DNA from: Escherichia phage vB_EcoM_G4498
Direction: 5' to 3' (one strand)
Length of the DNA: 64,000 nt
Sequence record: NC_054918.1
Notes under the pieces: generated by a model
Seen by the model: the letters and a program-made list of their open reading frames with translations, nothing else
What the model was told of the DNA's origin: nothing
Database searches by the model: none
Made by a program: the position numbers and the translations under genes
In this document: piece after piece, positions 1,109-40,249 of the stretch
How positions within the stretch are numbered: position 1 is the first letter of the stretch
Layout: every line of letters starts with the position of its first letter

Positions 1109-2392
1109 ATGGCTAAAATCAACGAACTTCTGCGCGAATCAACCACAACGAATAGCAACTCAATCGGTCGCCCAAATCTCGTTGCTTTGACTCGCGCTAC
1201 CACTAAATTAATATATTCTGACATTGTAGCAACGCAAAGAACTAATCAACCTGTTGCTGCTTTTTATGGTATCAAATACCTTAACCCGGATAACGAATTT
1301 ACATTTAAAACTGGTGCTACTTACGCCGGCGAAGCTGGATATGTAGACCGAGAACAAATCACAGAATTAACAGAAGAGTCTAAATTAACTCTCAATAAGG
1401 GCGATTTATTCAAATATAATAATATCGTTTATAAAGTATTAGAAGATACACCATTTGCTGATATTGAAGAAAGCGATTTAGAATTAGCTCTTCAGATTGC
1501 AATTGTTCTTTTAAAGGTTCGTCTATTTTCTGACGCAGCGTCAACAAGCAAATTTGAAAGCTCTGATAGTGAAATTGCGGATGCTAGATTCCAGATTAAT
1601 AAATGGCAAACCGCAGTTAAATCTCGTAAACTTAAAACTGGTATCACAGTTGAATTAGCACAAGATTTAGAAGCAAATGGATTCGATGCTCCTAATTTCT
1701 TGGAAGATTTGCTTGCAACTGAAATGGCAGATGAAATCAATAAAGATATTCTGCAGTCTTTGATTACAGTGTCAAAACGCTATAAAGTTACAGGAATTAC
1801 TGATACTGGATTCATCGATTTGAGTTATGCATCTGCACCTGAAGCTGGTCGTTCATTATACCGAATGGTATGTGAAATGGTTTCGCATATCCAAAAAGAA
1901 TCAACTTATACAGCAACGTTCTGTGTTGCTTCAGCTCGTGCTGCTGCGATTCTTGCTGCATCAGGTTGGTTAAAACATAAACCAGAAGATGATAAATATC
2001 TTTCACAAAATGCCTATGGGTTCTTAGCTAATGGTTTACCGCTTTATTGCGATACTAACAGCCCATTAGATTATGTAATCGTTGGTGTAGTAGAAAATAT
2101 CGGTGAAAAAGAAATTGTTGGATCAATTTTCTATGCTCCGTATACAGAAGGTCTTGACTTAGATGACCCTGAACATGTAGGTGCATTTAAAGTTGTAGTT
2201 GACCCAGAAAGTTTGCAGCCATCTATCGGTTTATTAGTTAGATATGCTTTATCAGCAAATCCTTACACTGTAGCAAAAGATGAAAAAGAAGCAAGAATAA
2301 TTGATGGTGGAGACATGGATAAAATGGCGGGTCGTTCAGATTTGTCTGTTTTATTAGGTGTTAAGCTACCAAAAATTATCGTTGATGAATAA
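1109..2392 (+). CDS. 24: Capsid vertex protein gp24
   Basis: 427-aa ORF, MAKINELLRESTTT..., gp23 paralog, position after 23. Confidence 0.95.
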   Translation: MAKINELLRESTTTNSNSIGRPNLVALTRATTKLIYSDIVATQRTNQPVAAFYGIKYLNPDNEFTFKTGATYAGEAGYVDREQITELTEESKLTLNKGDLFKYNNIVYKVLEDTPFADIEESDLELALQIAIVLLKVRLFSDAASTSKFESSDSEIADARFQINKWQTAVKSRKLKTGITVELAQDLEANGFDAPNFLEDLLATEMADEINKDILQSLITVSKRYKVTGITDTGFIDLSYASAPEAGRSLYRMVCEMVSHIQKESTYTATFCVASARAAAILAASGWLKHKPEDDKYLSQNAYGFLANGLPLYCDTNSPLDYVIVGVVENIGEKEIVGSIFYAPYTEGLDLDDPEHVGAFKVVVDPESLQPSIGLLVRYALSANPYTVAKDEKEARIIDGGDMDKMAGRSDLSVLLGVKLPKIIVDE

Positions 2393-2421: not shown

Positions 2422-3426
2422 TTAACTTACCAATTCAATCCAAGCCGGACGAAGTACATCTTGTACCATTTTAACTAATTCCTTTTTAACCAAAGAAGGA
2501 TTATCTGCTCGAGTTAGAGTAATACCTTCACGAGAAGTTTCTTCCAAAATATCTTGAACAGTTAGTCCCATCACCTTTCCAAAATCCTTCGGACCAATTT
2601 CACCAATTTTAGAAATAACGTTATTTACTCGGTTCAGTGTAACGTAGCAAGCTAAAATTCCCACCAATTTGTTATCAGCTTCTGATAGTTCAACTTTAGC
2701 TTTAATAGGCTTATCAGACTTTTTCTTTTCACTAAATTTGGAATTCTTGCATTTGATGGCTACACGATTTCCATTATGAAGCCAAGAAGGATAACAAGGT
2801 TTCAATACATATCCTTCAGCGGTAAATACTTCGCCTTTGGCTTCAGCTTTCCAAACACATTTGTTAGCGTCAACTAATCCAGCATGGTCTACTGTAAAAT
2901 TATAATCTTGGACGACAGAATCTAAATCATTTGGCAATTTAATAAGTTCTTCAAATTTACCACGACCTAAAAGTGGAGCCATTTTAAATTTAAATGTATT
3001 ACAAAATGATTCCATCATATAATCATCGACATAAGTCACATCACCACTTTCTGTAGTGACAATAATGTCAAATACATAAAAATCTTTATCGCCATAATCG
3101 ACATTCTTCTGAATGCCAGGTCCAGCGAATTCGCCAAAGACTTGATAAGATACAACCGCTGAGGTTTCCATAATATCTTGTACTGCTTTAATAGAATCTT
3201 CGTAATTCTTTAGAATAATTTCATACCCAAAGAAATCTTCAGCAGGAAGAATCGGTCCAGTACGTTTAGCGCAAGTTACTTTATCACGCTCAATAATCAA
3301 TGAGAAATTTGTGCCGTGAATCTTTTCACGAGCTACCCACTCCCCACCAGTCAATCCCAAGCTATAAAGTTTTTCAATAAATTTAGAGTTGTAATGATTT
3401 TCAAGACTGCTATACTTTTTAAACAT
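2422..3426 (-). CDS. rnlB: RNA ligase 2 (Rnl2)
   Basis: 334-aa [27 protein letters not shown]...; matches T4 Rnl2; KxHGxN ligase motif (KIHGTN). Confidence 0.95.
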
Positions 3427-34124: not shown

Positions 34125-35303
34125 TTAAAAGTATTTTTTAAAACTCATCATAACTTTATCATCAACATCATTATCAATCTGTGCAACAAGATAAGATGAC
34201 AGTTCTACTTCTTGTGGCGCTGATTGAACATTATCAGAATTAAGATATTCACGAATCCAAGGATATGGATGTTTAACCGGAGCATCGGTAATTGGGCATG
34301 GAAGACCGCACTGTTTCATACGAGATACAGTTAAGTAATCAATAAAGCTCCACATGCTATTTGTATTTAATCCAGGAACATCGCCATCTTTAAATAAATG
34401 AACTGCCCAATCTTTTTCTTGGCGGTTAACTTCCATGAAAATATCAACTGCTTCTTGTTCACACTCTTGAGCAATTTTAACCCATTGATCGCCATCAGTA
34501 CCAGATTGAAGTTGACGAATAATATATTGTGTACCTTTAAGATGAAGCTGCTCATCACGTGCAATGAACTTCATAATCTTGGCATTACCTTCCATGATTT
34601 CCATGTTTTTATGGAAGTTAAAGGTACACGCAAAGGATACATAAAAACGAATAGCTTCTAATGCATTAATAACGTGCAAACAGAGGTAAAGAGATTTCAT
34701 TAGCTCACGCTTCCAATATGTCTCATGCTCAATAGCATCTTCAATAACGTCTTCGTCTGCATTAATTTCTTTTTGGTATTCGATATCAGCTTTAGCGTTT
34801 TCCCAATAACGAGTTTTAATCAGAACATCATCATAATAACGTCCAATGGATTCAGCACGTTTCATAATAGCTTCATCTAATACAATTTCATCAAATACCT
34901 TCGATGGATCAGTATAAAGATTTCGCATGATATGAGTATATGAACGACTGTGAATAGTTTCACTAAAAGTCCATGTAGCAACCCATGTATCAAGGCTTGG
35001 GTCTGAAATTAATGACATAAGTACAGCAGATGGCGCGCGACCCTGAATGCTATCTAAAAGTGATTGATACTTCAAGTTGTTAGTAAAAATATTTTGCTGA
35101 TACTGAGGAAGCTTATTAAACTGTGCAGCATCCATCATCAAGTTTACTTCTTCAGGACGCCAGAAAAATGATAATTGCTTTTCGGTTAAATCTTCAAAAA
35201 CTTTATGACGTTGAATATCATAACGCGCAATACCAAGACCTGAACCAAAAAACATAGGTTCTTTTAAAACATCAACTGGATTTGTATTAAAAACTGTGCT
35301 CAT
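34125..35303 (-). CDS. nrdB: Ribonucleotide reductase small subunit NrdB, uninterrupted
   Basis: 392-aa continuous ORF; di-iron ligand motifs. Confidence 0.95.
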   Translation of the reverse strand: MSTVFNTNPVDVLKEPMFFGSGLGIARYDIQRHKVFEDLTEKQLSFFWRPEEVNLMMDAAQFNKLPQYQQNIFTNNLKYQSLLDSIQGRAPSAVLMSLISDPSLDTWVATWTFSETIHSRSYTHIMRNLYTDPSKVFDEIVLDEAIMKRAESIGRYYDDVLIKTRYWENAKADIEYQKEINADEDVIEDAIEHETYWKRELMKSLYLCLHVINALEAIRFYVSFACTFNFHKNMEIMEGNAKIMKFIARDEQLHLKGTQYIIRQLQSGTDGDQWVKIAQECEQEAVDIFMEVNRQEKDWAVHLFKDGDVPGLNTNSMWSFIDYLTVSRMKQCGLPCPITDAPVKHPYPWIREYLNSDNVQSAPQEVELSSYLVAQIDNDVDDKVMMSFKKYF

Positions 35304-35354
35304 AAATTTTCCGCTTAGTTAATAGTTGGTGACTCGTCCGTGAGTCAAATTATA

Positions 35355-37619
35355 TCATAATTTACAGGATGAACAATCTTCAGCTTTTGGAGTTTCTATT
35401 TCATAATCATCAGTACCAGAACCATCGCGGGTATTATGATAATAGAAATTTTTTCCGCCAAAATACCAAAAATACAAAAGGTCATCAATCATTATTGACA
35501 TTGGAACCTTGCCTTTAGGGAAGATTTGGGGGTCATAGTATGTATTCGCCGAAGCTGATTGACAAACCCATTTCAGCATAATAGCTACTTGCGTAAGATA
35601 AGGTTTATTACCTTTCTTAGCTAATTTCCATGTATAATCATATAGGTCTATGTTATGTTCAATATTGGGCACGACTTGATTAAAGGAACCCTCTTTTGAT
35701 TCTTTAACAGAGACTGGTCCACGTGGAGGCTCGATACCGTTTGTACTGTTAGAAACTTGGGAAGATGACTCACATGGCATAAGTGCTGATAGTGTGCTAT
35801 TACGGATGCCAAAGAGCTTAAGGTCTTCCCGCAGCGACGACCAGTCACAAACGTATTTTGGAGCTGCGATTTGGTCAATCTTTTTATTGTACCAGTCGAT
35901 AGGTAATTCGCCTCGAGACCAACGAGTGTCTGAATAATATTCGCAAGGTCCTTTTTCTTTGGCGAGCTTAATGGATGCTTTAATGAGTCCATACTGTAAT
36001 CTCTCAAATAGTTCATGTGTTAAATCGTTAGCATCTTCATAAGAAGCAAAGTTACTTGCCAGCCAAGCTGCATAGTTGGTAACACCTACACCGAGGTTAC
36101 GACGCTTTTTAGCTTTTTCTGCTTCAGGAACTGGATATCCTTGGTAATCCAAAAGATTATCAAGAGCACGAACTTGAACTTCTGCCAATTCATTAATTTT
36201 ATCTTGGTCTTGCCAGTCAAAATTATCTAGTACGAATGCAGAGAGAGTACACAATCCAATTTCAGCATCAGGACTATTCACATCATTTGTTGGAATAGCA
36301 ATTTCACAGCACAAGTTACTCTGACGAATAGGTGCCTTTTCACGAATAAACGGAGTATAGTTATTCGTATTATCAATGAACTGTACATAAATTCTTGCTG
36401 TTCCTGAACGTTCAGTCATGAGCAATTCAAATAGTTCACGGGCTTTAATACGCTTTTTACGAATATTAGGGTCTTTTTCTGCTGCTTCGTATAATTCACG
36501 GAAACGGTCTTGGTCTTTAAAATAAGAATAATAAAGCTCTCCACCCATTTCATGCGGACTGAACAAAGTAATGTAATCGTTCTTTCCGAATCGTTCCATC
36601 ATCAAATCATTCAGTTGAACACCATAATCCATATGACGAATGCGGTTTTCTTCTACGCCTTTGTTATTTTTCAAAACGAGAAGATTTTCAACTTCCAAAT
36701 GCCAAATAGGATAATAAGCAGTAGCAGCGCCGCCACGAATTCCACCCTGTGAACATGATTTAACTGCAGTCTGAAAATGTTTCCAAAAAGGAATAACACC
36801 AGTATGGCGTACTTCACCCATGCCAATCTTAGAACCTTCGGCACGAATCATACCAACGTTAATACCAATTCCAGCGCGTTTAGAGATATATTCAACAATC
36901 GAAGCGGAAGCCTTATTGATAGACTTCAGCGAATCACCTGCCTCAATAACAACACATGAACTAAACTGTCGAGTCGGAGTACGACAACCAGCCATAATAG
37001 GAGTTGGTAATGAAATCTGTCGAGTAGATACTGCTTCATAAAAACGAATAACATGTTTTAATCTATCAACAGGTTCATCTTGATGCAATGCCATTCCAAT
37101 AGTCATAAATGCAAACTGCGGAGTTTCATAAATTTGACCAGTGGTTTTATCTTTAACGAGATATTTTTCTTTTAATTGCATCGCCCCGGAATAAGTAAAT
37201 TCCATATCCCGTTCGTGCTTAATTTTTGATTCTAAAAATGTAATTTCTTCTGCTGAATATTTTGACAACAATTCAGGGTCATATTTACCTTCATTTACAC
37301 AGTAAGAAATATGGTCAATAAATGAACGCGGTTCATACTGCCCATAAACATGCTTACGAAGAGCGAACATTAGACAACGTGCAGCTACATATTGATAATC
37401 AGGCTCTTCAACCGAAATAGAATTCGCAGCGGCCTTAATGACAATAGTCTGAATATCATCAGTTGTCATTCCATCACGGAGATAAGATTTAATATTTTCA
37501 TATAATTCATAAGGATCTACTGATGTTCCCTCAGCTGCCCAAGATAAAACTTTAATAATTTTTTGTGGGTCAAAGCTCTGAGAAACACCACTACTTTTGA
37601 TAACATTAATTAATTGCAT
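35355..37619 (-). CDS. nrdA: Ribonucleotide reductase large subunit NrdA
   Basis: 754-aa ORF; C-terminal Cys pair (CSSCKL). Confidence 0.95.
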   Translation of the reverse strand: MQLINVIKSSGVSQSFDPQKIIKVLSWAAEGTSVDPYELYENIKSYLRDGMTTDDIQTIVIKAAANSISVEEPDYQYVAARCLMFALRKHVYGQYEPRSFIDHISYCVNEGKYDPELLSKYSAEEITFLESKIKHERDMEFTYSGAMQLKEKYLVKDKTTGQIYETPQFAFMTIGMALHQDEPVDRLKHVIRFYEAVSTRQISLPTPIMAGCRTPTRQFSSCVVIEAGDSLKSINKASASIVEYISKRAGIGINVGMIRAEGSKIGMGEVRHTGVIPFWKHFQTAVKSCSQGGIRGGAATAYYPIWHLEVENLLVLKNNKGVEENRIRHMDYGVQLNDLMMERFGKNDYITLFSPHEMGGELYYSYFKDQDRFRELYEAAEKDPNIRKKRIKARELFELLMTERSGTARIYVQFIDNTNNYTPFIREKAPIRQSNLCCEIAIPTNDVNSPDAEIGLCTLSAFVLDNFDWQDQDKINELAEVQVRALDNLLDYQGYPVPEAEKAKKRRNLGVGVTNYAAWLASNFASYEDANDLTHELFERLQYGLIKASIKLAKEKGPCEYYSDTRWSRGELPIDWYNKKIDQIAAPKYVCDWSSLREDLKLFGIRNSTLSALMPCESSSQVSNSTNGIEPPRGPVSVKESKEGSFNQVVPNIEHNIDLYDYTWKLAKKGNKPYLTQVAIMLKWVCQSASANTYYDPQIFPKGKVPMSIMIDDLLYFWYFGGKNFYYHNTRDGSGTDDYEIETPKAEDCSSCKL

Positions 37620-37936
37620 AAGTCCTCAACTTGAAAATCGTCTTTAAACAATCGGTTAACTATATGAGCTATTATATCACCATGACACGGCTTTGGTTTA
37701 CATGTGCATCCTAGCCTCATTCCACGTAAAGGCTCTAAATGTGCTTTAGTTATTTCTCCGGATTTAATTCGACGTATAAAATCTTTTTTGAATAATTCAA
37801 TGGCAGCCTCCCGGCTGCCAGCATCTTTACCGACGTAATTTCCCCAAAATGTACCACGGTGAATATTAACATCAAAGTCGGATTTGTATTTATTCACTAC
37901 CCGACATAGACGGCCCGCGCGGTGATAATTCGGCAT
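37610..37936 (-). CDS. Hypothetical Cys/His-motif protein, positional equivalent of nrdA.1
   Basis: 108-aa ORF with [11 protein letters not shown] motif. Confidence 0.55.
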
Positions 37937-38153
37937 ATTGTTTTTCCGTTAAAACAGTAATATCGTAGTAACAGTCAGAAGAAGTTTTAACTGTGGAAAT
38001 TTTATTATCAAAATACTCACGAGTCATTTTATGAGTATAATATTTTTTGCCATAAATGATAATAGGCTGATTTGGTCCTGGAACTTCTAGCTCACTTGGA
38101 TTAGGAAGTGTAAAAAGAACTACACCAGAAGTATCTTTAAATCGTAAAATCAT
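37890..38153 (-). CDS. Hypothetical protein, positional equivalent of nrdA.2
   Basis: 87-aa ORF; 3' end overlaps the downstream ORF by 47 nt. Confidence 0.5.
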
Positions 38154-39010
38154 ATTGCCATTTTCCCTTTAATTGCTGGATGCGATTCATAATTTTCAAG
38201 GATAAAATCTTTCGGTTTCATGTATTCAGTTAACCAGTAAAGCTGTGTTTCGGTGTCACAATTTCCAAACTCTATAGGCCAATCAATTTTAAGTTCACAT
38301 AGTTCTTTAGGCTCACGACGTAAAATTTCTTTACATTGCTCAGTATGATTCATATAGATGTGAGTATTACCACCAGAAAATATCAAATCTCCTGGGATAA
38401 GATTACACATCTTAGCCACAATATGCGTCAAGGCAGCGTACGAGGCAATGTTGAATGGCAATCCCAAGAAAACATCTACACTTCTTTGGTACCATTGTAA
38501 ATCAAGATAACCATTACGCACATTAAACTGATAGAACATATGACAGGGCGGTAATGCCATTTGATTGATTTCAGCTGGATTCCATGCTGAAACGATTTGA
38601 CGTCGATCAGTTGGTAATTTTTTAATACGATCAATAGTTTCAACTAATTGATCCACACCGCCGAAATCACGCCATTGTTTACCGTATATAGGACCAAGTT
38701 CACCACTATGATATCCTAGGTCTTTAGCCTGGTTTTCATAGTTATCGTCCCAAATAGTTTTACCTTGAATAAGACTACCATGTGTGCGAAGACGTAAATC
38801 ATTAACATTGGTAGAACCGGAAATAAACCATAGAAGCTCAGCAATGCATGCATTCCACGCAAGCTTCTTAGTTGTTACCGCAGGAAAACCTTTAGTTAAA
38901 TCCCAACGTAATTTAGTACCGAACAAAGCAATTGTTCCTGTGCCTGTTCGGTCATCGGTTTCATAGCCATTTTCAAAAATGTCTTTAATTAAATCTTGGT
39001 ATTGTTTCAT
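38150..39010 (-). CDS. td: Thymidylate synthase, uninterrupted
   Basis: 286-aa continuous ORF; catalytic Cys motif (ALPPCH). Confidence 0.95.
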
Positions 39011-39055
39011 TTAGTACCTTATATAAATTATAATACATTTTATGAAGCTAAATAA

Positions 39056-39403
39056 TCAATACGGTTTAGCATCAAATTTTCTCTCAATTTCAGGCGTGAA
39101 ATATAATTCTTTACCGCGTTTGGAAAAGCGACCAATAATATGATAATTATTCTCATCAAACGTGATATTACCAATATCCATAGCTTTCAACCAAATATCG
39201 ATATTTCTATCCAGCTTTATGTCAAAATTCCAATACGGAGAACTATTACCGAAAATACTGCAAGCGGATTCAGTGAAACAACTGCTATAAATCTTGTCTT
39301 TAGGAACTACTAATTGATAGACACCTTTAATAAACTGAGGACCCTGCCACTTTGGCTGTTTCGTGTCTTTTTCTAATAGAATAGGGTAATAATTAAAATT
39401 CAT
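39056..39403 (-). CDS. Hypothetical 115-aa protein between frd and td
   Basis: ORF MNFNYYPILLEKDTKQPKW...; not recognised; sits where I recall frd and td being directly adjacent in T4. Confidence 0.55.
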   Translation of the reverse strand: MNFNYYPILLEKDTKQPKWQGPQFIKGVYQLVVPKDKIYSSCFTESACSIFGNSSPYWNFDIKLDRNIDIWLKAMDIGNITFDENNYHIIGRFSKRGKELYFTPEIERKFDAKPY

Positions 39404-39422
39404 ATTTCCGCCACGCGTTATT

Positions 39423-40249
<827 letters not shown>

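Follow-up and report, generated by a model that had tools for sequence, protein, structure and literature searches.

Whether the small open reading frame (ORF) that separates the genes of dihydrofolate reductase (DHFR, frd) and thymidylate synthase (td) in the phage DNA analyzed here was inserted between them, or was lost from phage T4, in which the two genes overlap, is the question raised by this locus. The window, i.e., the whole 64,000-nucleotide stretch under study, is a Tequatrovirus segment, 100% identical to Shigella phage JK23 and Escherichia phage OMNI12 over the 701 bp compared. The first-pass annotation had reported about 410 bp with a 115-aa ORF between frd and td, and this layout is confirmed: the gap is exactly 39011..39422 (412 bp) and is filled by the ORF, hereafter td.1, and two spacers. 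td.1 lies on the strand of the operon (minus), with frd upstream and td downstream:

39423..40004, minus strand: frd, dihydrofolate reductase (ORF list; annotated as dihydrofolate reductase in the 100%-identical phage JK23 and others)
39404..39422, minus strand: frd/td.1 spacer of 19 nt, AATAACGCGTGGCGGAAAT, with a GG-rich Shine–Dalgarno-like stretch 5' of the td.1 ATG (sequence inspection)
39056..39403, minus strand: td.1 coding sequence, 115 aa plus stop, ATG start, beginning MNFNYYPILLEKDTKQPKW (ORF list; PHROG 1928)
39011..39055, minus strand: td.1/td spacer of 45 nt, containing AAGG, the ribosome-binding site of td, 6 nt upstream of its ATG (sequence inspection)
38150..39010, minus strand: td, thymidylate synthase, 286 aa, uninterrupted and intronless (ORF list; annotated as thymidylate synthase in matching phage records)

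Promoter and terminator signals in the two spacers occur at the counts expected from shuffled sequence, and the sole promoter-like match of the td.1/td spacer (TTGATT-18-TATTAT) lies within chance expectation. A search of the interval for structural RNA in Rfam returned one sub-threshold match only (Yar_1, 21.8 bits vs. a gathering score of 50), no opposite-strand element was found there, with plus-strand ORFs of at most 57 aa, and td.1 has no foreign base composition, its composition being that of its surroundings.

Some observations concern the neighboring genes. The td gene (38150..39010, minus strand) is free of the group I intron with I-TevI found in T4, T6, KarlGJung, and PYps5T (a two-exon td is seen in KarlGJung and T6), and td.1 and this intron are uncorrelated: T6 and KarlGJung carry both, the window td.1 without the intron, and T4 the intron without td.1. 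Further along the minus strand, nrdA (35355..37619) and an uninterrupted 392-aa ORF of the size of nrdB (34125..35303) lie 51 bp apart, the identities of the nrdA and nrdB genes within 34125..37619 being assigned by size and order alone. Given the narrowness of this gap and the uninterrupted nrdB-sized ORF, the window appears to lack the mobE gene and the nrdB intron of T4, and none of the three mobile elements found in the nucleotide-metabolism cluster of T4 appears to be present in this phage. Also on the minus strand, an 87-aa nrdA.2-like ORF (37890..38153) overlaps a 108-aa nrdA.1-like ORF (37610..37936) by 47 nt in a different frame (37890..37936), and the T6 record has the identical overlap.

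As to the nature of td.1 itself, its 115-aa product matches PHROG 1928 (E = 1e-35, residues 4–111 on profile positions 2–125 of 126), and a tblastn search of the phage collection recovered homologs in 579 phage records; 361 records, those of T2, T6, RB3, RB18, RB32, RB51, and RB68 among them, contain td.1 at an identity of at least 90%. The T6 copy (AY262134.2, protein ABI48938.1) is 99% identical to the window protein, of equal length, and likewise located between frd and td. When td.1 is compared with the Mosigvirus copies of Shf125875 and PHB12, dN is 0.036 and dS 0.70–0.74, hence a dN/dS of 0.05, and against the T6 copy dN/dS is 0.035. Because of the PHROG 1928 match, the homologs in 579 records, and the dN/dS of 0.05, td.1 is, by these comparative measures, a real protein-coding gene and not a chance ORF. 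As judged from its substitutions, it is moreover under strong purifying selection and conserved more tightly than Frd: protein identity between Tequatrovirus and Mosigvirus is 93% for Td.1, 86% for Frd, and 87% for Td, and identity to two metagenomic relatives is 63–66% for Td.1 versus 48% for Frd. Between the same two genera, dS is 0.70 for td.1, which lies between the values of frd (0.42) and td (1.09).

The gene is also already known, as an uncharacterized family catalogued in hundreds of records: the T6 record AY262134.2 labels it "td.1, hypothetical protein," and its label in RB51 is RB32ORF229c. No literature discussing td.1, RB32ORF229c, or phrog_1928 was found, the T6 accession being mentioned, with nothing further on td.1, in Wilson and Edgell 2009 (PMC2790892). 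That the model phage T4 deleted td.1 would explain why it has never been studied. GenBank labels for the gene are inconsistent (MZ501089.1, as bas37_0070; MZ501113.1; OR125554.1; OK274152.1) and read "putative homing endonuclease" in BASEL phages, "putative glucose-1-phosphate adenylyltransferase" in BW-1, and "dihydrofolate reductase" in APTC-EC-2A; the searches made here gave no support for any of the three, and we reject the first in view of the missing domain, the missing similarity to I-TevI, and the conserved synteny detailed below.

At least nine further lineages of the Tevenvirinae have, directly downstream of frd, a td.1 homolog of 26–47% identity; these lineages are represented by Enterobacter phage MY742 (unclassified), Edwardsiella PEi26 (Kanagawavirus), Klebsiella Mineola (Jiaodavirus), Erwinia Cronus (Roskildevirus), Klebsiella F48 (Marfavirus), Salmonella STML-198 (Gelderlandvirus), Citrobacter Moon (Moonvirus), Serratia CHI14 (Winklervirus), and Escherichia EcS1 (Kagamiyamavirus), and td.1 homologs likewise follow frd in Providencia, Morganella, and Proteus phages. 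Across genera, the identity of Td.1 to the window protein (27–47%) runs parallel to that of Frd (45–54%). In other genera, the td.1 homolog often overlaps the frd stop by 1–23 nt, where the window has its 19-nt spacer instead, and this overlap of the td.1 start with the frd stop suggests that td.1 may be translationally coupled to frd in those genera.

Most of these genomes carry, between frd and td, a second PHROG 1928 gene of about 115–145 aa, mostly located directly after the td.1 homolog, and this second gene is a paralog of td.1 (same PHROG; hhalign probability 99.5%, E = 9e-23). The proteins it encodes (e.g., PEi26 ORF-252, Moon gp253, and CHI14 ARW57658) have W19, HG-x-Y, GRF-x-K-x-G, and their overall length in common with Td.1 but, unlike Td.1, harbor an insertion of about 20 residues after the Trp, with the consensus ALV..G..PTI..YKRNP. 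Neither the window nor any other Tequatrovirus record examined has the paralog. In Erwinia phage Cronus (locus L008, 1559..2297), the pair stands in reverse order, the 144-aa paralog with a Trp-rich insertion directly following frd and the td.1-like copy adjoining td. When 1.84 billion representative proteins were searched exhaustively with HMMER, 52 matches to the family were obtained, all of 95–148 aa except for a fragment of 39 aa and four giant repeat proteins, and two profile searches of a 5.8-billion protein set found no further match with a Pfam domain; every family member with a traceable origin (through BFVD names, phage tblastn, source names, or large contigs) comes from a T4-like phage.

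With regard to T4, the first-pass annotation had stated correctly that the frd stop overlaps the td start: in the T4 sequence (...GTATATAAATGAAACAAT), the TGA of frd and the ATG of td overlap as ATGA. An alignment of the window, T4, and PYps5T shows T4 to be without 416 bp, and in the window td.1 is flanked by a pair of direct repeats:

39418..39429: left copy, 12 nt, spanning the frd Lys-stop, with the core TAAATGAAA at 39421..39429 on the coding strand (repeat search)
39002..39013: right copy, 12 nt, spanning the td start codon, with the core TAAATGAAA at 39005..39013 (repeat search)

The two copies have a 9-bp exact core and 11/12 identity over the 12 nt, at a spacing of 416. When one copy of TAAATGAAA and the intervening DNA (416 bp) are removed in silico, the outcome matches the T4 junction exactly over a 60-mer, and across the 285-bp fragment it differs from T4 at nine scattered positions. 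Just 32 records contain a 40-mer diagnostic of the direct junction, and they are mostly T4 laboratory strains, the others being near-identical isolates (RB55, RB59, vB_EcoM_112, HY03, SG1, G28, F1, FN, JEP6, FL12, FL18, and G2133). On these comparative grounds, T4 is the deletion state, and the presence of td.1 is the common, ancestral one.

The earlier description of td.1 as an accessory insertion therefore has to be divided. Accessory it is, as T4 and RB69 live without it, but 361 records with td.1 against 32 of the T4 type speak against an insertion, a reading further contradicted by the synteny after frd in at least nine lineages, by a divergence that tracks that of Frd, and by the exact, repeat-bounded 416-bp deletion of T4. 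Since td.1 is the majority state, syntenic, and missing from T4 through a repeat-bounded deletion, the term insertion is wrong and the polarity reversed, T4 being the deleted phage. As to whether T4 and its close relatives all carry a homolog, T4 does not, whereas T2, T6, and most RB phages do.

The direct junction is also met outside Tequatrovirus: RB69, a Mosigvirus, has an overlapping ATGA frd/td junction as in T4 (TATAAATGAAACAATACC; locus L018, 5384..5387), although other Mosigvirus genomes (Shf125875 and PHB12; loci L016 and L017) retain td.1 between TAAATGAAA repeats. Loss must on this basis have recurred or spread, and the RB69 junction would be either a recurrent repeat-mediated deletion or an allele transferred by recombination.

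In Tequatrovirus, the frd/td junction exists as three alleles, namely td.1, a 68-aa ORF, or nothing. The 68-aa ORF (PHROG 9550) is found at the junction in about 135 T-even records, including PYps5T, pSs-1, and JS98, and joins its neighbors via ATGA and TAATG overlaps. Examples of this ORF are the following:

1611..1817 of locus L004, minus strand: 68-aa ORF of Yersinia phage PYps5T
4670..4879 of locus L014: 68/69-aa ORF of a metagenomic T4-like contig
2673..2879 of locus L005: 68/69-aa ORF of Enterobacter phage MY742

In the metagenomic contig and in MY742, frd, td.1, the paralog, the 68/69-aa ORF, and td follow each other consecutively; in F48, the 68-aa ORF is shortened to 42 aa. Homologs of PHROG 9550 with 43% identity also occur in Phapecoctavirus-type phages (phAPEC8 and ESCO13), hence a small gene common to unrelated myovirus groups. 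As relatives hold all five genes together, which points to differential loss, the three alleles are best read as differing losses from an older array of this composition. However, the td.1 and 68-aa alleles are both present within one species, Tequatrovirus pyps2t, so allele exchange via the conserved flanks must contribute too.

Overall, we hold with high confidence that td.1 is a genuine gene and a long-standing resident of the frd–td junction that was not inserted there. Subsets of an older array of frd, td.1, paralog, 68-aa ORF, and td would have been lost differently to give the three Tequatrovirus alleles, possibly with some reshuffling by recombination through the flanking genes; in T4, a 416-bp deletion between the two TAAATGAAA repeats would have generated the overlapping frd/td junction. 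The explanation taken as a whole, according to which td.1 is an old resident of this junction in the Tevenvirinae and has a binding role, is one we consider probable.

This binding role is suggested by the features of the protein. W19, G27-x-Y29, and G91-(R)-F93-x-K95-x-G97 are invariant or nearly so in alignments of 18, 31, and 59 sequences and are all present in the window protein, the family thus having conserved aromatic and basic residues. The first-pass annotation recognized no motif in the 115-aa ORF, and sequence profiles of Pfam, NCBIfam, PADLOC, and the PDB indeed gave no match. AlphaFold2 models reached a pLDDT of 78 with 31 sequences, and a pLDDT of 91.9 and a pTM of 0.84 with 59; in both models, strands span residues 6–12, 27–34, 48–50, and 62–64, followed by a helix (68–76) and by strands at 80–82, 86–96, and 99–104. 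The model is that of a small beta-rich domain with a weak predicted resemblance to the OB-fold, the fold matches coming from a search with a model other than that of pLDDT 91.9. From this we infer that Td.1 would be a soluble, non-enzymatic, single-domain beta-rich protein of seven strands and one helix with a weak OB-like topology. A kinship with transthyretin-like or CarboxypepD_reg domains was considered and rejected: the Td.1 profile hits giant CarboxypepD_reg repeat proteins at E-values of 1e-6 to 1e-4 and TTR/HIUase at 0.06–0.24, but hhalign against 77 repeats gave a probability of 2.3% over 19 columns, limited to the G-x-Y-x-V strand, so the CarboxypepD_reg E-values reflect a common strand motif whose scores are summed over repeats.

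Td.1 would be made together with DHFR and thymidylate synthase from one early/middle polycistronic message and could use the invariant residues W19, G27-x-Y29, and G91-R-F-x-K-x-G97 to bind a nucleic-acid or protein partner. We propose tentatively, as a possibility short of probable, that it is a binding module without enzymatic activity, expressed together with the two enzymes and probably coupled to them in translation. A more specific proposal, that Td.1 and its paralog form a family particular to T4-like phages that either links DHFR and thymidylate synthase, physically or translationally, or targets a host factor, is rather doubtful. Whatever its role, td.1 is dispensable under laboratory conditions, as T4 and RB69 are without it.

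T-even accessory genes are generally small, early, dispensable, and patchily retained, and td.1, a small and dispensable early-region gene with patchy retention and a tandem duplication in many genera, would suit a host-directed accessory factor involved in counter-defense or host takeover, kept where the matching host system is met and otherwise lost; such a factor is nevertheless unlikely here, as a dN/dS of 0.05 is at odds with an arms race, in which proteins typically diversify, and neither PADLOC or another family hint nor any literature found points to one. Quite unlikely is that Td.1 is a partner in the thymidylate cycle, i.e., a small subunit or regulator that would bind DHFR and/or thymidylate synthase, or their mRNA, and thereby tune dTMP synthesis. 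Such a partner would account for the fixed place of the gene between frd and td and for the stop/start overlaps seen in most genera; a sequence constraint stronger than that of Frd is in keeping with it, and a weak OB-like predicted topology would fit the binding of RNA, single-stranded DNA, or protein. However, the pathway operates without Td.1 in T4, in RB69, and in every phage bearing the 68-aa allele, and no homolog of it was found outside T4-like phages. Besides, in early regions of the T4 type, the adjacency of two genes only weakly predicts that they share a function.

Regarding the origin of the gene, the T4-type junction could conversely be ancestral for Tequatrovirus, with the lineage of the window having reacquired td.1 by lateral transfer, through homologous recombination with a different genus of T-even phages. 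Such phages exchange DNA freely by recombination across conserved flanks, alternative alleles coexist within a single species, and the 93% identity of Td.1 between Mosigvirus and Tequatrovirus exceeds that of Frd and Td. We consider such a regain very unlikely, as the low dN/dS accounts for the high protein identity, the dS of td.1, intermediate between those of frd and td, indicates that any transfer was not recent, the T4 junction is the rarest state, borne mostly by T4 laboratory strains and near-identical isolates, and the 416-bp deletion explains T4 exactly.

Hardly credible, finally, is a mobile insertion, i.e., a homing endonuclease gene of the free-standing kind, intact or as a remnant, having invaded the frd/td junction: the label of BASEL phages KarlGJung and WilhelmHis implies it, and presence/absence polymorphism in close relatives between two conserved genes, the mobile intron borne by td in some phages, and short flanking direct repeats would agree with it, but no GIY-YIG, HNH, LAGLIDADG, PD-(D/E)XK, or other Pfam domain was detected at E ≤ 10 in the window protein, and none is common to 18 family members, BLASTP against I-TevI gave E = 2.7, at 115 aa the protein has roughly half the length of Seg and Mob proteins, the matches of the predicted fold include no nuclease, the repeat search found no terminal inverted repeats, and the distribution is not sporadic, the position after frd being kept in at least nine other lineages, with identity tracking Frd, dS comparable to that of the neighbors, host-like composition, and a Tequatrovirus polymorphism explained by deletion.

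As a genome feature, td.1 is ordinary, and its value is in the first place corrective: when T4 serves as the reference, genes missing from T4 look like insertions, and here the reference is a deletion mutant. The frd–td junction is moreover a site with three alleles, which would go back to an older array of several genes, and the repeat-bounded 416-bp deletion accounts for the T4 allele to the base. Besides, as a gene under strong constraint whose product is modeled with confidence but matches no known fold, td.1 makes a reasonable small target for functional work.

How td.1 compares with known systems may be considered at three levels. As a locus, the window has its counterpart in T6, from which it shows no material difference except for the intron, carried by the td of T6 and missing from that of the window. 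As a fold, the predicted topology of Td.1 weakly resembles OB-fold domains (those of Teb1, RPA, SSB, HIN, and S1). As a variable gene, td.1 is like the Seg and Mob genes of T4 and I-TevI in its variable presence between conserved nucleotide-metabolism genes but, unlike these, it encodes a half-sized protein that bears no nuclease motif and no similarity to I-TevI, and its place is syntenic across genera.
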